Positions 272-44,202 are shown, numbered from the whole stretch's first letter. The stretch is DNA of 61,277 bases, filler included, from 10 parts of 10 records of this genome joined end to end with filler, not necessarily neighbours in it; one strand, 5' to 3'. Notes: generated from the sequence alone by a model not told the origin. A program made the numbers and translations.

Positions 272-3043
272 CTATGAGCCTAAACTGAACCCACCCCCTG
301 TGAACCTTTGTGCCGATTGTTGCACCGTTCCGGTCCGCATCGGCTTACCCTCAAGCGAGCCACCTGCACACCCGCCAAGTCACACACACGCGCTTATTGC
401 TCGAATCACCGTTCTGGCCCTGCTGATCGCGCCGCTTTTGCTCAAAGTACTTCTTCTTTACGTCTTGCAGCTCGCGAGTGAGCCGCTCGATCTCAAATTT
501 GTACTCGTTTACCTGCGCTTGGTACATGTTGAGCTCCGCCGCCATCGCCTTCATCTGCTTGGTCTTCTCGCGCAGATTAGTCTGGTACACAGACAGCTGT
601 TCGGCCACCTCTGGGCCGGGCTGCCGGGCCAGGATATTCTTGAGCTCGACGTACAGCTTCTCCTTCTCCTGTATAAGCAAGTCCTTCTCGACAACCTCTT
701 CGGTCTTGGCGATGAGCCGCTTCTGCAGCGTCTGAATCTTCTGAATCATCTCATAAGTGTCGGGATCCGAGCCCTCCAGCTTGCGCCAGCGGTGCACATT
801 CATTGGGTTCTCGAGCTCCTCGCTCAGGGCCTTGACCTTGGTGCGCTCCTGGAGCAACTCCTTCTGAAGGTGGTACACCTCGTTCCTTAATCCGTCAATG
901 TTGGACACTGAAGACGAGAGCAGTTGCAGCTCGCGCTTCATGTCGTTGATCTTGAGCTTGAGCACTCGGATGTCCTCTATTCGCTCGCGGTACTGCACCT
1001 CGCCCTTCTTGAGTGTGCTCTGCTGGATCTTAATCTTCTCATACAGGAGTGCCAACTCATCGTTCCGCCGAATCAGCTGGGTGCCTAGAATGTCCCGCTC
1101 AGACACAACTTCATCCAGCTCCTTCTGCTGCCGCTGCATTTCGCGCTGGCCCTTCTCGATGATGGCCTCGAGCTTCTTGATCTCCTGGCGCAGACTCTTG
1201 CACGTGTTGTCTGATTCGCCCAGCTGGGTCCGAAGCTTCTGAATGTCTCCCTTCTGCAGCTCCCTCTCCTTTTCGAGCCTGGCATGCTCAAGGTGGACTG
1301 CCATCAGCGCTGAGTCCTTGGCCTGGATCTCCTCCTTGAGCTGAGAGATCTGGTGGTTCATAATTTTGAACTTTCGACGCATCTCCTGGATCTCATCCTG
1401 CGCCTCTATCAAGTTCTTTGAGTACAAATTCCGGTCTGAACGGACAGCCTCGTACAAGTTCTGCTGCTGCTTGAGTCGAGTCTCGGCCTCGTGGATCTTC
1501 TTGCGCAGGTTCACAATGGTCAGATCACGCAGCTTCACCTCCTCCTGGGCCTGCATGTACTTGGACATAGCCTCGGAGGCCTCGGCGCCGTACTTTTCTC
1601 GCTCTTTCTCAAGCTGGAAAATCATCTTGCGCTGCTTTTGGTTCTCGCCCTTGTACGACTGCATCTCCATCTCCATTGTCTTCTTACCCGACTCTTGCAT
1701 TTTGACTAGGTCCTGCTGGGTTCGGGTGTCGATCTTCTCCTTTTGCAGCTGCTTCGAAAGAATATCCCGCTGCCTCTTCAACTCCTCTATCTCCTTCTTG
1801 TCCTCGTCGTGCAGCCTCTTCTGCGTCTCCAGCTGCTTGGCCAGCCGGTCCAGGTCCTGCTTGAGCTGCTCCTTGTCCCTATTTGCATTAAACACTTGCT
1901 GCTCCACTTTAGCAACCTGTCGCCCGACCTCAGCCTCGCCAGCCACCCCACGCTCACCTTATGCTGCATCCGCTCGGCTGTCTTTTTGACTGCCTCAGCC
2001 TCCTGCCGGAGCTTCTCGATCTCGAACTCCTTTGTCTTAATCCCCTGCTGCCGAAGGTCGAGCTCCGCCTTCAGGTGCGTGCTCCCGTTGAGTGCGTCGT
2101 CCAAAAGCCCCTGCCCACCGATCACTTGGCCGCCTATGTGCTGATCGCGCCTTGGTACGCTGGTGGTCCTGGTTAAGCTTATCGAAGTCCTTGACCTGCT
2201 TCGAGATGAACAAATGCTGGTCCTTGACTCGAGTGTTAAGCTTTGTGATGTTCTCCTCAGCCTGCTGGAGCTGGCCTGTCTTTGATTTAATCTCCATCGT
2301 GTGGTCGTCCAGCATCCGCTTGAGCTCCTTCAGGTCCTTCTCGTGCCGCTCCTTCCGCCGGTGTTCCCGCTCCATCTCTAGCCGCCTGTTCAACTGCTGG
2401 TCCCTCAGCTCCTTAATCTCGTTGTCGATGTCCTCCTTCGACTTCTCCAGATTTCCAAGCTTATCCCGCAGGTACCGGGTCTCCTTGGTGAGCTCCTCCA
2501 CCTCGATCGCCTTCTGATCCCGCTCGAGCGCCAGTGCGTCCCTTTGCTCCTCCAGCTCGTGCACAGTCGACTCCTGGCCCAGCGACAGCCCAGCCCCCTG
2601 CTCGACCAGCTTGGACAAGTTGGAGATCTCCATCTTCAGCTGGTGGATGGTCTCCTTAGCCCGGACCTCCTTCTCGTGCGCCGCGTCCACCATCTTCCAC
2701 GCCTTCTCTATCTCCTTCTTAAGCGACGAAATCGTGTTCTGATCCTCCTGTGACAGCTTCAGCGCCGTCTGCACCTTGGCCGCATTGGCCACGATCTCGG
2801 CGTTGAGCTCGCGGCACTTCTTGATCAGCCGCTTCTCGCTCTCGTGCGACTTTTTGAGCGCCCGGTGCAGCTTCTCGTACTCGATCCGGAACCGCTCGAG
2901 GCTCTTGTCGCCCACCAGCTCTGTGAGCACCTGCCCAGCAGGGGTGGGCCAGGGCCTGGGCCAGGGCGCACCTCCTGGAAATCCTTCTCGAGCGCCTCGA
3001 AGGTGCTCGACTCGATCCCCAGGTCCGGCTTCTTGCCCTCCAT
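272..3043 (-). CDS. CFAP58: Cilia- and flagella-associated protein 58 (coiled-coil), 4 introns
   Basis: Three ORF pieces plus a short terminal exon splice into one frame: MEGKKPDLGIESSTFEALEKDFQE|VLTELVGDKSLERFRIEYEKLHRALKKSHESEKRL...ERDILGTQLIRRNDELALLYEKIKIQ...NPMNVHRWRKLEGSDP...QRFTGGGFSLGS*. These are characteristic CFAP58 motifs. Introns: 2931-2971 (41 nt, GT-AG), 2111-2150 (40 nt, GC-AG), 1917-1957 (41 nt), 364-409 (46 nt). Confidence 0.93.
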
Positions 3044-10322: not shown

Positions 10323-13300
10323 ATGGCGAGGCGGCCGTCGGTGGGGGCGCTCGCCCGAGCCCTCGCCACCACAGTGACCGCCCGGAGGCTGGTCCGTCGC
10401 TGGCGCGCCGACTCCCTGGGCACAGGCAGCGGTAGCAGCGATGCGCTGCCAGTTAACGCCGGCGCGTCGGAGCTCCCCACTGCCGGGTCGCCCGGGTACT
10501 CGGGCCCGGACGAGCAAGTGCGCGCGGCGCTGGGGCACCGGACGGCTATATTGACGACCGCGGCACCGTCGAACGAGCTGGGTGAGCCTCCGAGCAGCCC
10601 CCACCTGGACCGGTGGCGCCGGCAGCCACTGGTGGCCCGGTCCAAGATGAGCGCCGTGGTGGACACGATGGTGGTGGGCCCCGACATCTGGCACCGGGCC
10701 CTGCTGGCGCTCCTCCGTTGGCGGCTCCGCTGGTGGCTCTCAGAGGCCGCCCAGCGCGGGTCGCCGGCCTCTTCCCCGCTGCCCCGCCGGGCGGTAGACG
10801 CCGGTGGCAGGGACGCGGCGGCCGGCCCGGCCGAGCTGCGGGCGGCGCTGGAGCTGAAATCGAGTGAGTGTGCGCAGCTGGCTGCGCTGAATGCCACGTT
10901 AAGCCGGGAAAACGAGGAGATGTCCGCTCGGCTGGCGGGCGCTGCCGAGCGAGGCTTCCGCGGGATCTGGCGGGCGATGCTCGCGCACTGGATCGAGGCG
11001 CGGTTAAGCACGTGCGTGCGCCGCTGGGCTGTCAGGCGGCGGGAGGGGTTGAGGGCGCGGCTGGACCGTATGGATGAGGTTGAGTCTAGTGTTTGTGGCG
11101 CTCGGGAGGAAGCCGAGATGTTGTTCGAGCAGGCTAGCGAGTTAGAGAGGAAGCTGAAGAAGGCGGAGGCGGCGCGGGCGGAGGCGAAGGAGGAGCTGAC
11201 GGCTGTTGAGCAGGCGGCAGCGGACAAGCTGAAGCAGGCGGCGGCTGAAACGCTGCGGCTCAAGGAACAGTATGAGGAGGCTAGTGAGGCGCTCCAGGCT
11301 GCGCAGGTAGAGCTAGATCAGCTGCGGGCCGACAGCGTCGAGTGGGAACGGAGCGAGAGACTGGCGGCCGAGCAGCAGAAGCAGAGCAGGGGGCAGCAGC
11401 GGGCGCAGGCGCAGGGGATTGCGCAGCTTGAGGCTTCGGTTCGTCGACAGGCTAGGGAACTGGAGGAGAAGGACGAGCGGCTCATGGCTTGCGACGGGCT
11501 GCGGAACGAGGTGGTGATGCTCCGTAAGCAAGTGGCGATGCTCGAGGCCAAGCAGCAGTCGATGCTGGTCAAAGCTTGCGACGAGCGGAAGGCACACATG
11601 GCCGAGCTGCAGGCGCTGCAAGCGCTAGTCCCACCCGACCGCGCCGCTGCTTTGCCGCAGGAGATCGCGGGGCATCTGGCCGATGCTCAGCTGGTGCGGT
11701 CCAAGAGGGACGTGGTGGCGCTCCGCAAGCGCGAGCAGAGTTTAATCAAGCAGACGTCCGATCAGGAGAAGGCAACAGCAGGGCTCAAGGAGGACCTGGC
11801 CTCTCTCAATGCTCAAGTGGCCCGACAGGGCAGGGTCAAACAGCTCTGTGGGATGCGGATGGTCCGTTGGGCGCTCGTCCAGCGGAGCGCCAGCCGGATG
11901 ACAGGGCTAGTGGCTGGATCCGTGGCGGCCTGGCGAGGTTCTGTGGACGCGACGCCTCCTCTCGAGAGGCTGCGGGCGCAGTTGGCGGTAAAAGAGAAGC
12001 TCGTGGAGCAGCTGCGGTCCGAGCAGGCCCGGAGGGACAAGCAGACGCGAACTGAGCTGGGCAAACTGCAAGACCAGGCCAGAAATCACCACGGCCAGCT
12101 CCAGGCGGCCCGGCTGCACAGTGCACTGTCAGAAGCCGAGAGCTTGAGCGATGCTGAGTCGCCTTTGAGCTCGCCAGTGGTCTCTGCAGAGAACGCGCAG
12201 CTGAAGGCAGCGCTCGAGGGGCGAGTCCGTGAACTGAACCGGAGCGAGGGGAACCGGAAGCGTGAACAGCTAGAGTCGGGGCTGCGGCTGCTGCGCGTTG
12301 TGCTGGCCCAACATGGCAAGGACAAGATCGCAAGCTGCGTGGCCGGCTGGCAGGCGGCGCAGCAGTTGTCTGCGAGTACGAGCGCTAATATCTCCCAGAT
12401 CGAGATCATGCTCAAGCAAGCCAGTGCTAGGCAGGAGCGGGAGGCCGAGCAGCTGGAGGAGAAGCACGCGGAGGCTAGGCACAAGGTGACGCGGCTGGAG
12501 GCCAGAGTGAGCCAGCTTGAGGAGAGTGAGAAGGGCATGCTCGATCAGCTGCTCGAGGCGCACGTCACTGTGGCCGAGCTGCAGAAGGACTTGGACTTGA
12601 CTGCCAGTCAGCGAGTGCAGGTGCAGAGCCAGCTGGAGTCGTCCCAGTTTCTCGAGCAGATGCACGCCGAAGAGGTTATTAATAATAGCGAGCGTTGCTC
12701 TATTAGCAATTGATCGGGTCGTTAGGTGGCTTCGCTTGAAGCGGAGATAGCGAGGCTCCAGGCAAGGGAGGCTTGGCACATTGAGACTGCACGGGCCGAC
12801 GAGGAGATGCAGCAGAGCATGATGGAGCAGTTGGGGCCGGAGCAGACTTACAGCGCGCAGAGCGCTCACCTGGCGTCAATGATGGATGCAGTTGCAAAGC
12901 TAAGTCAATTCGAGTCTGAATTGCTGCTTGAGCACGCGCACTGCCTCGCGGCCGATCAGGGCTGCCCGGATAGGAGAGAGGCGGTGCTGCATGACTTGAT
13001 AGCCGGTGGTAAGCACAGCAGTGTGGACAGCTTGAGGGCAGAACTGGACGGGCGGGTGAGCGAGAAGACTCTGGAGGGGGTTAAGACAGGGCTGGTCCGG
13101 GCACAGCTCGAGGGGGCAGTCAGCACAGAGACCCAGGATAACATCAAGGCGGGCCTGGTTCGGACTCAGCTGGAGGGCAACGAAGGTACAGAAGTCCTGG
13201 CTGACATCAAGGCTGGGCTGGTACGTTCTGAGCTGGATGGTGTGGTTGGTGTCGAGACCCAGGATAACATCAAGGCTGGGCTGGTGAGAGCCCAGCTAGA

Positions 13301-13460
13301 GAGCACAGTGAGCGACCTATTGCTGATGAATATAAGAGAGAGCGTAACAGACAGGCTCGGGCAATCACCGAAGGGAGAGCGTGAAGTCACGAAGCAAGAC
13401 GAACAAACTTCGATCGCGGATGTAAATAATTGGCTGCAGCGCCCGCCGCCGTCTTTTTGA
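10323..13460 (+). CDS. Large coiled-coil protein with Trp-ending helical motifs and C-terminal 20-aa repeats
   Basis: 796-aa and 244-aa ORFs joined in frame by a 51-nt GT-AG intron at 12675-12725; heptad-rich E/Q/K/A sequence. Confidence 0.7.
13030..13330 (+). repeat. Coding tandem repeat, about 60 nt / 20 aa, 4-5 copies (K[AT]GLVR[AST][QE]L[ED]G)
   Basis: VKTGLVRAQLEGAVSTETQDN / IKAGLVRTQLEGNEGTEVLAD / IKAGLVRSELDGVVGVETQDN / IKAGLVRAQLESTVS; the DNA string GAGACCCAGGATAACATCAAGGC is repeated. Confidence 0.85.
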
Positions 13461-13585: not shown

Positions 13586-13685
13586 NNNNNNNNNNNNNNN
13601 NNNNNNNNNNNNNNNNNNNNNNNNNNNNNTTAATTAATTAANNNNNNNNNNNNNNNNNNNNNNNNNNNNNNNNNNNNNNNNNNNN
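13586..13685. other. Artificial contig spacer
   Basis: N44-TTAATTAATTAA-N44 (stops in all six frames). Identical spacers at 20200-20299, 25304-25403, 28981-29080, 35746-35845, 44203-44302, 49794-49893, 52912-53011 and 57379-57478. Confidence 0.99.
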
Positions 13686-35845: not shown

Positions 35846-38800
35846 CCGAGATTGCCAGCCAAGGCCACAGCATCATGGAGCAGATCGACGTGGGGTGGAG
35901 TATCGCATGCAGTCAACAGAGCATGTTGCACAGTTGAGCCTCCTCGCTGTATGAGTCGCTCAAGGAAGCGCAAGCAGTTAGATGCACAGGAAAGCGCATC
36001 TTTGGTTAGGACATACCGCGCGCTGGCCGACAATCTAGTCAGGTCTGGCTCCAATTTCGGTTCGAGAGCTTCGTGAAGCGCACGCAACACCTGGGACCGT
36101 AAGACCTCAGATACAAGTGTTACATGCAACATTGCTAACACACACCTGGGACCGTAAGACATATTGCGATGACGGGACACTGCCGGTGCACGTCAGAACT
36201 TCCACAAAGGCGAGAGCACACGACTTTGGGACCTGGTCTAAGAGCTCCGAGGCTAGAGACAATGGGGTCAGGCCTTCAGGTATCGAGGAAGCTGGGCTAC
36301 TGCTAAGGACGGATGACCAGAGTGGTGGCACTTGAATCCTGTTCGATTGGATTCGCTCGCAGAAAGCTACACGAGCGAGGATGAGATGGGCCAACTTGCA
36401 CAAAGTCGGTTCGTGGCAAGACTGAAGCTCACCTCTGCGGCACAAGATGGCAAGAATAGTCAGAACTGAATCAATGAAAGATCTCAACTCTTTTTTCGAG
36501 GTCGGGCCACTGAGTGTCATTAGGGTTTCATGCGCACGGCGTTGGAAGGCTTGAAGTGCTCCACTAAATGCCACCGCCTGGCGACTGCAGAGGACGACCT
36601 TGGATATCAACGCCCTGCGTGCAGCCCGGACATGGCGCTTATGGTCTGCAAAGGCACTTTGTGCATCGGGCAATCGGGTCATCTCGACGGACGCGACATG
36701 GCAGGCGTCACCTATTGCGCTGTGTTGGGTAACTGCAGTGACTGCAGCAGGGTTCGGGGTGGTGTTGACCAATGCTAAAGATATGACAGCTTCTACATGC
36801 GATGCCACGCGTGGCTCATGCTGTGCGTAACCCCGTAGCAAGAGGTTGAACAGCAATTCAGGATCATCACAAAGACTCGATAAAACTTTGTCGTCGAACT
36901 GATCATCGACTCCATCTTTGTGCTTATAATCAATGATTTGAGTAATTGCCTTCGCGGTGCTTGATCGATAGTTTGGTGGTATGTGATCAGTAAGCCAGCG
37001 GACCGAAAAGCCTTCAGCTGGGTGCCATGAATGTGAAATGAAAGCACGGATGGCAGGATCTCGGCGCATGAGTGTCGGTATCACATGGATAGCGCACCCA
37101 ATGAGCATTTTGCTCCCACGGCTGGCCCATCGATCACCAGCACTGCGCTGACGAGTCGCAACCCATTGCAACAGGGAACCGGGCTGAGCAAGAGAGCCTC
37201 CAAATTCCATGAGCAACGAAGTGGCCCGTTTAGCCAACTCACCTTGCTTCGAGAGGGCTGCAACGCGGTGAACTAGATCAAGAGTTGCGACAAAACCAGG
37301 AACGTTGCACAACCGTGCCTCGACATGCCCAATCTCAGAGACTTTGCACAGCATCGCAGTTCCATTCAGCATTCTGACAGAGTTTACAATGTCACCTATA
37401 GGAGTGTGCACAGCATCTTTTACATTCTGGTTTTCGTCCAGCCATTCCTTGACAGCACTAATGAAAATGTGCCCGAATTGCACATGCTCAATGGACAACT
37501 CCACCATCTGAGAAAGGAAATCAAGCCACAGGATTTCTGCATCTGCGCTTTCTCGTGGCAGTTGAATCTGCGCGGACAGCAGCACATCAACAAAGCAGGA
37601 AACTATGCTCACACACGCAGGTACTGCTAGTGACTCTGGGCCACTGCCGTGCACGAGAGGCCTGCGAAGCATAGCTATTAGCCGTACCTCGACCCGCTGC
37701 AGCTGACTGAAGATGGTCCCTCTGTAGAAGTTGTCCGAGCTGAACCTCGGCCGCGACACAGGCGAGCGGAAGGGGGAGGCCATCCTGAGTGGCGACAGAT
37801 ACAAGCTCGGGTCCAAGATCAATGGCACTTCCGGTCTAGATTGGCTAGTTTGCATCTGGACATTTGCTGCCTTGGCGGACAAGCGTTGCCATCTGCTGCA
37901 CACCATTGCTCCTCTCCATTGTTTTGCGACCGGATCTATTGGCTTTGGCTCCAGCATCCGCAAGGTGGATACTGAAAATTCACGTGAGAGCGATGTTCCA
38001 GGCCGAAGGGAGCTAGTAGTCCGGGTGATGGCGTTGAGTGGGGACCTTGGCGTCGATATGACTTGAACGCGCTTGGCATTAAATTGGATCCTGAGAGACC
38101 GCTGGATATATTCCAGTATCTTCAAAGCCGCAAAAAAAACGCATTGCGGCTCCTCCGAGAACAACAGCGTTTCAAGCAAACGTAGGCAGTGCGGAGCGAC
38201 ATCTTCGTCCGGTGCAACTCCTGGACCACCCAGCGGGTGAAGCGCAAGCTTCTGGAGCTCCTCGTTGGTCAATAAATGGTGCTGCGTCTCCGGTAAACTA
38301 GCCAAAACTGTCAACGCACCCAGAGCAGCAACACTCCTTTTGTACTGCAGATGCGCAGGCTCGTTGAACAAAATACCAGACTCAGTGGTTCGTAGATAGC
38401 TAAGCGCCGCATTTTGCCGGAGCCATACCTCCCATCGAGCCATGAAGGCAAGCGCCGCAGGCGTCTGCAGCTGGCCAATCCAAATGACAGCACAGGCAGT
38501 GAAATGAAGGACGTACCTGCCATCACGATAAAAAAGGACAGGATAGGCTAGAAGGCTAGAAGGCTAACATGACTCACTCCCAGCTTGCGCGTGCATCTTC
38601 CTCGTGTTTATTACGGATCACCGCATCTACATCGCCAGCCATCTCTGTCGCCAGCTGCTCCCCGTTGAGAATCTCAAATATCAACTCGAGCAGCTCAAGA
38701 AGATCCTGGTTCTGATCTGGACCCTGTGCGCCTGGCTCTTCATCAAACATCCCGTCGCTGCTGTCTTCCAGGGGCATCTCGTCGCTCAGTGGCAGTATGC

Positions 38801-40715
38801 GATGTAGCTGCATCCTCTGCAGTCTCTCCCCGAAACGATCGTGGCCCATGCAAGAACCTGACGAGCCCAGTACCTTCTGCAAGATCTTTGTAGACAGCAC
38901 CTTGCTGATACAGTTTGAGTGCAATGTCGCTTCGTCCTCGTTGCCTCCAAGAATTACTTCCAACAACCGGAGCGCGGCACTACGTTGCTCATCTGGGGAG
39001 TCGACAAAAATATCGACAATCCGGCAGCTTGCATGGTCTTGACTCTGAAGAAGCACATTGCGCATCTGAGCAAGGAAGCGAGGCTCATCTGCAAAATCAC
39101 ACTCTTCATCATACAGCAATTGTAAAGCGAGCTGCGCTGTTATGGCTCCAGGGCTCTTGCTGAAGCACGTGCCGTCATTGACAGTGCACCAGGCTGAATA
39201 GTGCGCCCCGCAGAATTCGGTACCGATAGGGGGAGGATCGCTCTTGCCATCCAACTGTAGAGGCCTTGCTGCAACCGCCGTTGAGTGAGTCAATAGAACT
39301 GAGTCGAACGAGGCCCGCACTGCCGGCCAGAAAGACTTACACCGCACCAAGGCGTCACCAAGTTGAGATGAAATCTCACAGCACAGGCGGATGGCGATAG
39401 TGAGTGCGGCTGGCAGCACCAAGTGTGCGGGCGAGACTTCGTGAGGCGATGGAGATCGGAAAGCCGACCGTGGCGATGCAGAAGAGCCATTCAACGAGCG
39501 GCGATGGCTGAAGGCAGGGTCGCCTTCAAATGACGAGAAGGACGGAGGCAAATAAGACAATGTCTGGGAAATGAAATTGAGGAGAGCTTCTCCCCAGGTC
39601 TCACGCAAATGACCGACAAGCTTCTCTGCGACCGGCTTGAGCTCCTTGTCATGGGTCTGAACAACTGCATAGAAGGCCCAGATCAGCTCAATTGTCTGCT
39701 GCTGACAAAAGTGCTCCTCTTGGAGCAGAAAGTGTTCAATATGCGGCTCACAGATGCCAAATAGCTCGACCAACATGGCTGCAGGCAGCTGGGGATCGGC
39801 CTGAACGAGGTCGATCACGATGTGCGCAAACCTCGTCTGCATGAAGGCGATATCTTCGAAATGGAGCGAGTCGGCATCCTGCAGCGTGAGCACCGTCTGA
39901 CAGTGGGCCAAGGCCTCGATTATGTCCTGATGGCTCGGGTGATCGTACGCAAGGTAGCAAGCGGCCCGCCAGGCCTCGCACCGCACATGCACATCGCACC
40001 ATATCAGCTCCTTCTCGACCGGGCCTGTGAGTGCCGGACTCGGCCGAACTCCGAGCAACAGCTCCAGCCTGGTCGGAGCCCCGGACTGCCGCCCCAACAG
40101 CCAGCCCCGCACCGCCTCACGCAGTGCACCGCAGCTCAGATCGGCCCGGCAGAACTCGGCGGCGATCGAGATCAGTGCGGCCCGGAAGGAATGGATTGAG
40201 AGCTGCAGGCTGCCCGGAACACCCCGTCCCCCCGCGCGGGGCGAGACGTGCTGGATGCAGCGGACCGCCACGGCCTCGAGCAGCAGGCTGTGGAAACCAG
40301 CCGCAAGGAACACGGCCGGCGCACCCGGCTTGGTGACAAGCTCGAGCACCGCCTGACCGGAGGCAGTGAGGCTGGCGCTGGCGGCCGGCCCGGCCGGCTG
40401 GAGCACCCCACGCTCCTGCCACCAGCCGGCCACCGCCCCGAGCAGCCCCCGGCCGATCTCAGGGCAGCGCTCCAGGTCCACCAACGGCAGCAGCTCGAAC
40501 GCTGCCGGCCCAGCGCTCTCGATCAGCGGCAGCAGCAGACGGGTGGCCCGTTCACCGTCGTCCACCGCCCCTGACAAGGCTTCCTCCAGCTCGGCCAGGC
40601 GCGGGTCCTGCCCAGCCGGTCGCTCCGGACCCAGCGAGCCGCTCCGGCCTCGGCGGTGCCGCCGGCGCATCGTGGGCAACGGCGCCGGAGGAGACAGCAG
40701 CCCGAGCTTGGACAT
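35846..40715 (-). CDS. Very large alpha-helical (ARM/HEAT-like) hypothetical protein, 3'-truncated, 2 introns
   Basis: The 713-aa, 778-aa and terminal ORFs join in frame via GT-AG introns at 38517-38577 (61 nt, containing TAGCCTTC repeats) and 36091-36145 (55 nt). Sequence is Leu-rich and helical. Confidence 0.7.
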
Positions 40716-40719
40716 TTCC

Positions 40720-40890
40720 TACACGGCCACCGGGGGGACCGGTTGGACGGTCAGCGACGGCTGGTGCACCGGCGACCCGTGTGCGGGCTGGACGGGGGTG
40801 ACCTGCGCCAGCAGCCGGGTGCAGCGCCTGCTCCTCAAACTGCAGCTGCAGCCGTTGAAAACATTGGGCCACGTCATCCTGGGCTGTTGA
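40720..40890 (+). pseudogene. Orphan fragment of an LRR N-terminal cap (LRRNT_2-type)
   Basis: YTATGGTGWTVSDGWCTGDPCAGWTGVTCASSRVQRLLL followed by a stop; no dedicated start, signal peptide or LRR array. Confidence 0.6.
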
Positions 40891-40913
40891 CCGGGTGCAT
40901 CACTCGACGTACA

Positions 40914-42395
40914 ATGGGCTGCGACGCCTCCGACGCGTCTGCACCCGAGGAATCGCGCATGCCCCGCGGGCTCCGGGAGATGGCGGCCCGTTGCTCCACA
41001 CGCCAGTTCGACCCGGAGCGGCCGGTGCCAGAGCCGATGGTCCGGGGCATCCTGGAAGCCGCCCGGAGCATCCCGAGCTCGGCCAACACTCAGCCCTGGA
41101 CCGTCCTGGTTGTCCAGGGCGCCGCGCGCGACCAGCTCTCCGCCGGGCTGCTCGCGTCCTTCGACGCCGGCAACGACGGCCAAGCTCAGTATGACCTCCT
41201 GCCCACAGAAATGACCCAGCGCATGCAGCAGGCAGTGGAAGAAGCCGGCCACAAGTACCGAGAGCACCTAAGCCTAGCCCCAGACGATGCCGCCGGTCGT
41301 CGTGCCGCGGACCGGCCGGAGCTCGAATTCGGAGGCGCCCCAGTCCACTTGATCCTGGCAGCGCCGCGTGAGCAGTGCGTGGTGGAGAAGGTGGACGGCG
41401 TCTTCCTCGACATGGGCTCGCTGCTAACTGCGATCCTGCTGGCCGCGCACTCGGATGGGCTTGGCGGCGCGCCTCTGTTCGCCCTGGCGCGGTACCACGC
41501 AGTCTGCCGCGAAGTGCTCGGCCAGCAGCTGCCAGACGATCTGTTGGTCATCTGCGGGGTGAGCCTAGGGTGGCCTGCCAGTGCCGCCCCGCCGGCCTTC
41601 CAGCCCAGCCGGCTTGCAGTGGACGCGACCACGCGCTGGATGAACTGCGACCAGGCCTGGCTCGGGCAATCTGCAGCCTGGAACGGCCCGTCTAGGGAAC
41701 ACAGCCTGATAGAGCTTATTCAGTCGAGACACTGCTCCCACCAGCTGGACACAAGCACGCCTGTCCCCAAGCAGCTGATTGATTCAATACTCGACGCGGC
41801 TCGGAGCGTCCCGTCGATCGGCGATGCCCAGCCTTGGAATGTGACTGTTATTCAGGGCGAGGCGAGAGATGCGCTGTCCACCAGAATGCTCGCAGAGTTT
41901 GATGCTGGGGTTGACGGGAAACAGACGTATAAGAAGTACTCCGCGGCCAACACCGCGCAGATGCAGAAGAGCAAAGACACCTACGGGTATGAACTTTACG
42001 AAGTGAAGCACGGCTTGGAGCGGGACGATAAGGCTGGCAGAAGGCTCAAATACCGCCCGAATTACGAATTCTGGGGAGCTCCCGTGTTGCTGCTGCTGAC
42101 TGTCCCGAAGAGTGCAGCTGGCGGTACATTCGTCGACATCGGCTCTTATATGTATGCGATTCTACTCGGAATGCACTCATTGGGCCTCGGCGGCAAACCG
42201 TTGGGCAGTGTGGCCAAATACACACACATTTGCAAGGAAGTGCTCGGGGAGGAGGCGATGCCTGAGGACGAGCACTTGGTCTGCGGGCTGTGCATCGGTT
42301 GGCCCGTCGAAGGCCGGGATCCATGTGAAACGCCGGACTTCTTTCCCAGTCGATTGACGTTGGAAGAGACCACCCGGTGGGCCACAGTGGTATGA
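40914..42395 (+). CDS. Tandem two-domain nitroreductase-family (FMN) protein, intronless
   Basis: Two homologous halves: RCSTRQF...PVP...ILEAARSIPSSANTQPW...FGGAPV...DMGS...LAAHSDGLG...CGVSLGWP...PSRL, and RHCSHQL...PVP...ILDAARSVPSIGDAQPW...FWGAPV...DIGS...LGMHSLGLG...CGLCIGWP...PSRL. Confidence 0.9.
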   Translation: MGCDASDASAPEESRMPRGLREMAARCSTRQFDPERPVPEPMVRGILEAARSIPSSANTQPWTVLVVQGAARDQLSAGLLASFDAGNDGQAQYDLLPTEMTQRMQQAVEEAGHKYREHLSLAPDDAAGRRAADRPELEFGGAPVHLILAAPREQCVVEKVDGVFLDMGSLLTAILLAAHSDGLGGAPLFALARYHAVCREVLGQQLPDDLLVICGVSLGWPASAAPPAFQPSRLAVDATTRWMNCDQAWLGQSAAWNGPSREHSLIELIQSRHCSHQLDTSTPVPKQLIDSILDAARSVPSIGDAQPWNVTVIQGEARDALSTRMLAEFDAGVDGKQTYKKYSAANTAQMQKSKDTYGYELYEVKHGLERDDKAGRRLKYRPNYEFWGAPVLLLLTVPKSAAGGTFVDIGSYMYAILLGMHSLGLGGKPLGSVAKYTHICKEVLGEEAMPEDEHLVCGLCIGWPVEGRDPCETPDFFPSRLTLEETTRWATVV

Positions 42396-42717
42396 TTCGA
42401 GACCACTTTGTACGACAAAGTCCTTTTCAAAAGCATTGTGAGTATCGTTATGAATAAGCGAATAACATACAAGAATAATTAATTCCAGTATAAAGGAAAG
42501 AACTTAATAATCATCGCATATCGTTAGCTGTTCCGCAGACCATCCTGGCCCCATTCAGCCGCAGAGCAACGCAACAACCGCGGAGATGAACTGCCCGAGA
42601 GATCCACTCGCTGCAAGCTGTTCGGCAGCGCAACCAGCGACCCGGTTTCGGTTCCGCACTCGCGCCGCCATGAGGTTGCACCGAGCCGACATCTCGCAAA
42701 CTTTGGCGTATCAAAAG

Positions 42718-43314
42718 TCACGTCGAAATCAAAAACAGCACGAAGTACCGGTAGTTCCGCCGGGCGATGCAGTTGCCCACCCACGGGCAGTGATGGTCAA
42801 ACACCTCGACACAGTTGTCGCAGTCGCTGCAGTGGTGGCAGCGCGGCGGTCGGTAGATGTGACACGTCTCGCAGTACCGCCACCGCTCTGTGGTGCCGTC
42901 CTCTAGTTTGTTGGTGATAATCCGGGGGCGTCGGGTGGCGCTCGGGGCCTCCCGCGGGATCACCCCCGGGTCGCACGCGTGGCAGACTGTCAACGTGCCT
43001 AGCATCGACACCAGGCCGACCAGCGCTACGAGCACGCACCACCAATACCCGGCGCCGCGGGACACTAGCCCGGGGCATACGAAGCCCAGGAAGAGCAGGG
43101 TTGGGACCGCTATCAGGCTGCAGGTCACCAGGAACGGCACCGTCTCCGGGCCGGCCATCAGGCTGCCTTTGCAGTAGAACTTATTCTTCCCGGGCCATAG
43201 CAGCCAGCGGGCGACTGCCCCGGTGAGCTGGACCTCGTCCCCGCCGTCCGGGTCGTCCGGGTCCGACGGCGACAGCGAGCTGTGCATCACATGCGGGGCC
43301 GGGTCCGACGACAT
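42718..43314 (-). CDS. DHHC palmitoyltransferase (ERF2/ZDHHC9-like), C-terminus apparently short
   Basis: [11 protein letters not shown], two TM helices, [52 protein letters not shown]. Confidence 0.85.
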
Positions 43315-43474
43315 GCCAATGCCGGTTGCCTACACGTAGACTGCCATCGGCCTTCAATCGGCCTTGCCGTTGGCCAACCAACGGAAACAACTCCAGCGCC
43401 AGAGGACAGCACGCCAGCTCGCAGGCTGTCCCAGCTCAAGCCCGGGGCATACGAGCTCCAGCCTGCTGCTTCGC

Positions 43475-44202
43475 ATGTGCTTTGAGTCCGCCAGGTGGCT
43501 GCTGGTGCTGCTCGCGGTCCGGTGGGGCGACGGCGGAGCTCCTCCGGGCAGCTGCGGACAGCAGCTCCCAGTCCCGGCCTGTCCCGACGCCCAGCCGAGC
43601 TGCCGCCAGCCCGACCGCCCGGCGAGCGCCGCCGTGTGCCTCGGGCGGTGGTCTGACGTGCTCTCGGCCGAGTTGCTGGCGGACGTGACCGACCTGGCCC
43701 TGCGCAGCGAGCTGCGGGACACCTACAGGTGGGACCTCCGGGGCAGCCCACGCAACACGTTCGAGAGGGCGGTGGCGGTGGTGGCTGGCCGGCTGGGTCT
43801 GGCAAGGCCGGGGCTTTTCTTTGTGGAGTATTGGCACAAGCAGGGGCTGCCGGCGGATAACTGGCACTTTGACAGCGACGAGCACCAGGAGGATTGCGCC
43901 TCGATGCCCTGGCTGAGCACCATCCTGTATCTGGACGGGCGCGGACCGCCCACGCTGCTGCTCAGCAAAACGCTCAGTGACATCCCATTTGCCTCGCCCA
44001 GCTCAGGGCCGGCCAACCGGACCAGCTTCATCTCGTGGCCGGCCGCCAACCACCTGCTCGTGTTCAGCGGTGACCTCGCCCACGGGGTGCTGCTTGATGG
44101 CTCCTTGCCGCCCGCCCCGGGGCTCCGGCCTATCCTGCTGATCAACTTCTTTGCCAACCGACCGGTCGACGGACTCGAACTCCCTGCGAGCCAGATCCGG
44201 GC
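43475..44202 (+). CDS. 2-oxoglutarate/Fe(II)-dependent oxygenase-like protein (3'-truncated)
   Basis: VEYW, WHFDSDE (HxD), LSTILYL, LLVFSGDLAHGV (distal His), RPILLINF. Confidence 0.75.

Follow-up and report, generated by a model that had tools for sequence, protein, structure and literature searches.

How does a 55-nt unit bounded by GT and AG, and overlapped at both of its ends by copies of one exact direct repeat, come to interrupt a long coding frame in a marine protist: was it born as an intron through a single insertion that duplicated its target, or did it reach its present form by another route? The window, that is, the whole stretch of DNA that was analysed, consists of 10 contigs separated by linkers (44 N, TTAATTAATTAA and a further 44 N), with a total length of ~61 kb. 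The host contig occupies positions 35846-44202 (8357 nt, 59.6% GC) and the element is located 241 nt from its low-coordinate end. The parts of the host gene, in the order in which they are read, are collected in table 1, together with the introns of a second gene of the window.

Table 1. Coordinates of the element and of the host gene around it, with the introns of the CFAP58 gene for comparison
Feature	Position	Strand	Description
Further upstream exon(s), same gene	38578..40718	(-)	714-codon open frame (38574..40718)
Second short intron, same gene	38517..38577	(-)	61 nt, GTGAGT...GGCAG, phase 2; boundary repeat of at most 2 nt
Upstream exon	36146..38516	(-)	~790 codons; open frame; relatives at 50-66% identity; strain differences mostly synonymous
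Upstream repeat copy	36142..36160	(-)	Last 15 nt of the upstream exon and first 4 nt of the proposed intron
Proposed intron	36091..36145	(-)	55 nt, GT..AG, phase 0; 5' end GTGTGT, 3' end CCCAG
Unique filler	36106..36141	(-)	36 nt; starts with GT, ends with CTGAG
Downstream repeat copy	36087..36105	(-)	Last 15 nt of the proposed intron, acceptor AG included, and first 4 nt of the downstream exon
Downstream exon	35846..36090	(-)	81 codons; incomplete at the contig end; no open frame other than the splice-consistent one
CFAP58 introns			40 nt, GC-AG; 41 nt, GTGAGC..ACAG; 46 nt, placed equally well in two ways, of which one gives a GTGTGT donor

The repeat is the 19-mer ACACCTGGGACCGTAAGAC, found exactly at 36087-36105 and 36142-36160 with a start-to-start spacing of 55 nt. 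No third copy is present in the window, both strands of which were searched. Read along the minus strand, an upstream exon ending in GTCTTACGGTCCCAG|GTGT is followed by the 36-nt filler, then by the second copy of the repeat and finally by the downstream exon, and the upstream copy contains the AG|GT that would be used as donor. By chance, exact repeats of at least 19 nt at spacings of 25-400 are expected ~6e-5 times in 61 kb. At the same spacings, 36 exact repeats of at least 11 nt exist in the window and four of them reach 17 nt. The spacings of the other three (63, 126 and 90) are all multiples of 3, and thus these are read as coding repeats.

These observations agree with the first-pass annotation of this DNA, which had described an exact 19-nt repeat with a spacing equal to the intron length and had claimed that it supplies both donor and acceptor: the two copies were located and are unique in the window, AG|GT lies within the 19-mer, and GT..AG is in register. 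The boundary-repeat null that it had proposed was computed at the scale of the window, by collecting every GT..AG segment of 35-90 nt that joins two long same-strand ORFs in frame. This gave 191 candidates, the majority of which must be spurious, and their in-register boundary repeats reach 4 nt at most, against 15+4 = 19 nt at 36091..36145.

Several lines of evidence point to an intron. An 818-codon frame of the minus strand (36107..38563) runs 12 codons into the element and there meets a stop codon, and removal of the 55 nt from 36145 to 36091 continues this frame into the sole open downstream frame, which reaches the contig end at 35846. The two large frames of the gene were used to train a codon model. 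Under this model the splice-consistent frame of the downstream 81 codons obtains +10.2 and the two alternative frames -12.8 and -26.5; for true coding chunks of equal length the score is 13.9 +/- 6.1. The proposal that splicing would restore the reading frame is therefore supported both by the open frames and by the codon score of the downstream one. A second GT..AG register, 36160..36106 (GTCTTA...CTGAG), leads to an identical predicted mRNA. The existence of two such equivalent registers is a direct consequence of the 19-nt repeat, and of the two, 36145..36091 has the better donor.

The signals and the length are also those of a short intron. Read as a motif, the CTGAG that closes the filler is branch-point-like and lies 16 nt from the acceptor, and the 41-nt intron of CFAP58 carries a like TGA-containing motif, CTGAGGTC, 13 nt before its own acceptor. 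The introns of the CFAP58 gene (275-2375) were placed by alignment to homologues of 91% identity, and a 51-nt candidate intron at 12675-12725 joins two long ORFs. The other introns found in the window, a small comparison set, fall in the range of 40-61 nt (40, 41, 46, 51 and 61), and the 55-nt length is ordinary for an intron of this genome. The RNA contig of the locus (run X17, record 9) covers 35846-35949, ending 142 nt short of the intron, and comes from a library which may hold DNA. From the frames, the coding signal and the splice motifs we infer splicing itself, and the 55-nt element would be a genuine U2-type spliceosomal intron.

Small parts of the stretch are shared by 18 public runs from 13 studies, all of them aquatic or marine metagenomes. 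The three DNA runs with the largest share (X1, X2 and X3) and the sole RNA run (X17; 4% of sampled words) were compared with the window. Record 2 of X1, 269 nt in length, aligns to 35971-36239 without a gap and preserves both repeat copies unchanged. It differs from the window by five substitutions, all placed in the 36-nt filler (36125, 36126, 36127, 36134 and 36136), against 0 differences in the 233 positions outside it (Fisher p 3.3e-5). On the downstream side, the 241 nt covered by X1 show 0 differences. Record 1 of X1 (121 nt, 0 differences) adjoins the element and was counted with its flanks, and across the five other scored contigs of this run (records 3-7) there are 29 mismatches to the window in 1304 nt, or ~2%, which indicates that X1 is another strain and not the source assembly. 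Constrained flanks around a free middle are what an exon-intron-exon arrangement predicts, and they argue against a recent disabling insertion as well as against an assembly artefact.

The 24 exonic differences listed (23 from X1 and one from X3) are synonymous in 18 cases and fall at codon position 3 in 20, and the host gene is under purifying selection in the frames used. Record 10 of X2 ends at 36117, 12 nt into the filler, and record 11 of X3 starts at 36137, 5 nt into it; both are compatible with the element and too short to bridge it. The joined, intron-less form was not found in the four runs compared, whose contigs drop rare variants. Searches with the exact 19-mer gave 0 matches in metagenome_contigs and 0 in viral_contigs, and protein-guided searches for the locus returned 259 pattern matches in metagenome_contigs and 43 in genome_contigs, with 0 confirmed in each.

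The distribution of the strain differences is itself uneven. The exons adjoining the intron show 0 differences from X1 in 335 nt, where ~7 are expected from the rest of the gene (P ~6e-4), and the filler of the same contig differs at five positions, three of them adjacent. The local history of the X1 contig may differ from that of the rest of the gene, this end being more conserved or more recently shared. Alternatively, the filler may change faster than neutral sequence, perhaps through multi-base events.

The host gene gave no Pfam match at E up to 0.1, and no homologue of near its length was found for the 806-residue ORF. The only relatives found, in an all-length profile-free protein search, are eight metagenomic fragments of 129-225 aa and 50-66% identity, which derive from ENA and Logan DNA assemblies with contigs of up to 8376 nt. 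None of the eight reaches residues 727-806, and the 81-residue downstream exon had no match among proteins of 44-142 aa. The Atlas offered weak leads to large helical-repeat proteins (DUF3689, Nup192-like) with scores of 0.90-0.92, at which recognition is below threshold. The host gene is large and, by these comparisons, restricted to its lineage. That the organism is flagellated is shown by a CFAP58 gene located on a neighbouring contig. The best named relatives of this CFAP58 are only 66-71% identical and belong to unrelated groups, and an Atlas search was no more diagnostic of the lineage. The host is an uncultured marine flagellated eukaryote.

The same relatives of 50-66% identity appear to carry at least four short introns, which were read through by prokaryote-style gene calling, and these apparent introns sit where the exon of the window is unbroken for 790 codons. 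A rapid intron turnover in the host gene is hinted at by this comparison.

The filler has a GC content of 39%, against 54-56% in the flanks. No other copy of it was found in the 61-kb window, where the best exact match is 9-10 nt, and the description of the filler as unique and AT-richer is thus correct for the window. When it was compared with the flanking exons on both strands (319 nt upstream and 260 nt downstream), no significant similarity was obtained (best 111/2000 shuffles). A templated or snap-back origin from these exons was accordingly set aside, as nothing rises above the shuffles. An A-rich tail is absent from the filler on either strand, and no known RNA family was matched in 35846-36700 at E up to 1.

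A hairpin within the filler had been regarded as the core of the element. The fold as it had been drawn is indeed the predicted minimum-energy one, at -6.6 kcal/mol. However, it is average in comparison with shuffled sequences (z -0.19; 75 of 200 shuffles reach an equal or lower energy), the fold of the whole intron is equally unexceptional (z +0.16), and the five substitutions of X1 remove the inner stem and bring the fold from -6.6 to -2.6 kcal/mol. The inverted repeat of 6+4 nt is internal, occupying positions 1-25 of the filler and leaving 11 nt outside. A functional role of the hairpin as a core was rejected, being no better than shuffles and broken in the X1 strain.

The origin that we favour involves one event. 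The coding sequence would have been broken at a site containing CAG|GT, and a stretch of 19 nt would have been copied on both strands, either at a staggered break or between two nicks 19 nt apart that were then filled in. Between the two copies, 36 nt of unrelated, AT-richer DNA, foreign or untemplated, would have been trapped. The upstream copy would give the donor CAG|GTGTGT and the downstream copy the acceptor CCCAG|GT, with the end of the filler offering the branch-like CTGAG at its distance of 16 nt. Splicing would then remove exactly one repeat unit plus the filler and restore the ancestral frame with no codon changed. Because the target contains AG|GT, one event would have supplied both splice sites.

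The identity over 15 nt between the end of the exon and the far end of the intron is not a coincidence, and it follows that a duplication happened. Since the boundary repeat is far beyond chance and has AG|GT inside it, an insertion with target duplication is the natural reading. A simple tandem duplication of the exon was discarded, because 36 of the 55 nt of the intron show no similarity to the neighbouring exons. Taken as a joint statement, that this is a real intron and that it was born by insertion with a 19-nt target duplication, we give the reading a probability of about 0.7 on what can be read in the DNA. As for the claim of the first-pass annotation that the direct repeat marks an intron gain, either by break repair or by introner insertion, the in-register repeat far beyond chance sustains the gain, and the introner variant is left without support.

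That variant belongs to a wider explanation, by which the 19-nt duplication arose when a miniature mobile element inserted as the filler: an introner, a MITE, or else a truncated retroelement placed by target-primed reverse transcription. Target-primed reverse transcription typically produces long target duplications, and the filler does hold a 6+4-nt inverted repeat. Introners are frequent among aquatic protists, and in some of these elements one splice site is provided by the target duplication (PMC11282704). On the contrary, the filler is present only once in the 61-kb window, the sole span searched, where a low-copy family may have gone unnoticed, and the A-rich tail is missing from both strands. 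The inverted repeat is not found at both termini, has only the stability of shuffled sequence and is broken in X1. Moreover, the duplications of introners reported in PMC11282704 are of 3 nt in Micromonas and 3-5 nt in Amoebophrya, against 19 nt here. An introner insertion is not upheld, as a family of copies in 61 kb and terminal inverted repeats are both lacking and the duplication far exceeds those of introners, and a mobile element of any of these kinds is considered unlikely. Quite unlikely is a second explanation, by which the 55 nt are never spliced and form a frameshifting insertion that truncates the protein 12 codons on, the downstream frame being a decaying remnant. It would agree with the lack of RNA evidence of splicing (the RNA contig ends at 35949) and with the donor GTGTGT, which departs from the GTGAGT and GTGAGC of two other introns. 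But the element is common to two strains whose exons have diverged by ~2%, X1 shows five differences within the 36-nt filler and 0 in the 241 nt that it covers downstream, and the codon score of the downstream frame is still that of true coding sequence. The upstream exons are under purifying selection, and on this explanation chance alone would have put GT..AG exactly in register with the frame.

Two further explanations concern the repeat rather than the intron. An older intron may have stood at the site, with a later local duplication or conversion placing the end of the exon into its 3' end, in which case the repeat would date a rearrangement within an existing intron and not its birth. 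Internal staggered breaks within young introns are described for Daphnia in the cases of PMC4202315, and no orthologue that could date the position was found in the searches above. Nevertheless, we regard this course of events as very unlikely: the repeat is in register with both splice sites and has AG|GT in both copies, as a single insertion gives, while a secondary event must recreate the register of the splice sites by chance, and an original intron of 55 nt minus one repeat, that is 36 nt, would be shorter than any intron in the window (40-61 nt). An assembly or scaffolding artefact near the contig end is scarcely credible. The suspicion arises from the short contig, part of a concatenated draft assembly, which ends 241 nt beyond the element, and is answered by the contig of another study which spans the element at equal length, with both copies and as a distinct haplotype (five substitutions), and by contigs of two further studies which carry its edges. 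The assembly duplication against which the first-pass annotation had cautioned is excluded by the same gap-free X1 contig, which comes from another metagenome.

The age of the gain, as an insertion with target duplication, can be bracketed from the two strains. It had been called very recent, and this is overstated, because the strain ~2% diverged has the same intron with both repeat copies, and its filler has already accumulated five differences. The exons of the two strains differ by ~2%, which corresponds to roughly 3.5% at third positions. In neither strain has any change occurred in the 19 intronic repeat positions or in the ~6 synonymous positions of the exonic copy. In the absence of constraint on these positions, ~0.12 substitutions per neutral site would be an upper bound for the age of the gain (with 0.05 or more as the probability of no change), and any constraint on the splice signals loosens this bound. 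The gain would thus be young enough for the 19-nt copies to be identical and older than the split of at least two marine strains, and we infer that it is not a new polymorphism. In this respect the locus provides a rough clock, the footprint being perfect though the intron predates a strain split of ~2% exon divergence.

As a known class, the gain of introns by break repair was represented by only about five unambiguous cases in the 2012 review of the subject (PMC3443670, Table 1). The birth of new spliceosomal introns is still argued. The best later series of such gains comes from one crustacean. The neointrons of Daphnia pulex are ascribed to the repair of staggered double-strand breaks (PMC4202315; reviewed in PMC3443670), and in 33 cases given in PMC4202315 a direct repeat of the exon end, 4-12 bp long, is found at the far end of the new intron. 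As in the Daphnia cases described there, an unrelated sequence was apparently inserted into an exon and its source is not identifiable. The present case differs in its repeat of 19 nt, in its occurrence in a marine protist with introns of 40-61 nt, and in having been seen only with the intron, whereas the Daphnia introns described are polymorphic. The repeat had also been said to exceed typical target-site duplications, which is confirmed with 19 nt against 4-12 bp in Daphnia and 3-5 nt in introners.

Duplication of AGGT as the source of both splice sites, and insertion of DNA into a protosplice site, are among the routes treated in PMC3443670. Similarly to the transposon insertions into protosplice sites and the introners presented in PMC3443670 and PMC11282704, a duplicated AG|GT target would here give donor and acceptor, and the coding sequence would be restored exactly. 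In contrast to the introners of the latter source, with duplications of 3-5 nt, the duplication is longer, the insert is of 36 nt, terminal inverted repeats are absent and no family exists in 61 kb. There is also a likeness to the tandem duplication of an AGGT-bearing exon segment, as outlined in PMC3443670, in that two copies of AGGT would act as donor and acceptor in a precise gain. In that model, however, the whole intron is duplicated exon, and here 36 of the 55 nt are unlike the flanking exons.

A comparable scar is known from transformants of Ostreococcus tauri, where the integrations described in PMC8002553 are NHEJ-like and include a direct target duplication of 518 bp and insertions of 55-83 bp of unknown origin. 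Both are marine unicells, and in both the target is duplicated directly and a short insert of unknown origin lies at the breaks (PMC8002553). The O. tauri cases reported there are laboratory vector integrations and not natural intron-making, and kinship to the present organism is not implied. They nevertheless provide an experimental precedent, in a marine unicell, for a long target duplication accompanied by filler.

Among these systems the element fits the break-repair class best, with the route reconstructed from its footprint. It adds one clean case, from a little-known marine protist, to a mechanism already described, and introduces no new one. A duplicated AG|GT target with 36 nt of filler would have been sufficient for a unit competent in splicing, as predicted, in a genome whose introns are of 40-61 nt. 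It is a doubtful conjecture that break repair in this lineage, by leaving duplications of ~20 nt around short filler, makes introns routinely and with no part played by transposons. Were the complete genome to hold further boundary duplications of this kind, Daphnia would have a counterpart among protists, and the birth of introns could be read directly from sequence.

The host-gene exon on the minus strand is uninterrupted at the points where its relatives show insertions or frame breaks. The relatives compared are metagenomic protein fragments (P0002, P0004-P0008 and P0140-P0142) with 50-66% identity, which are encoded on metagenomic DNA contigs, and the comparison was made at the protein level. 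Judged from these sequences, the insertions and breaks look like short introns left in by prokaryote-style gene calling, and such read-through introns would correspond to intron positions missing from the host gene of the window. Among these insertions and breaks, the protein sequences compared include no case of an in-frame boundary duplication.

Features in the window and in the relatives of the host-gene product
Feature	Position (strand)	Details
Host-gene exon	36146-38515 (-)	
17-aa insertion	after CNIAGY	P0006, P0007, P0142; absent from P0002
~20-aa insertion	after LLEG	P0004; first residues back-translate to a GTGAGT-like donor
18-aa insertion	after TLAKL	P0005, P0140, P0141; starts VSV
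Frame break	after TLAKL	P0008; same point as the 18-aa insertion
Divergence	after FGGSL	P0002; point where P0004 resumes
End of sequences	at IQVRT	P0005 group
Host-gene open frame	38574-40718 (-)	
Nitroreductase ORF	40575-42392 (+)	606 codons
CFAP58 intron	2111-2150 (-)	40 nt
Exact direct repeats	13128-13330 (+)	23 nt, spacing 126; 19 nt, spacing 63
Linker	13586-13685	eight more sites in the window

The nitroreductase ORF, named after its C-terminal domain (Pfam E 1e-40), overlaps the 5′ end of the host-gene open frame head to head.

N44-TTAATTAATTAA-N44 linkers string together the 10 short contigs, of 3.0-13.6 kb each, that make up the window; therefore, genes flanking a linker are not shown to be adjacent in the genome. 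The direct repeats are found where the first contig ends, and probably reflect tandem repetition of coding sequence, with a period of 63 nt, within the ORF following a 51-nt intron candidate. In the CFAP58 gene, the placement of the 40-nt intron is supported by homology. From its sequence, this intron appears to begin with GC instead of GT (GCGCGA...GGGCAG), and the best GT alternative scores clearly poorer against the homologue (184 against 159).

Around the candidate 55-nt intron, the window was compared with contigs of X1, a public metagenome run containing a different strain; one of them, of 269 nt, spans the intron. Five positions differ between the two strains within 36125-36136 of the filler (the unique stretch between the two repeat copies of the intron), three of them adjacent. 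The surrounding exon is identical over 335 nt, and the rest of the host gene differs by ~2%. The local rate or history around this intron is uneven.
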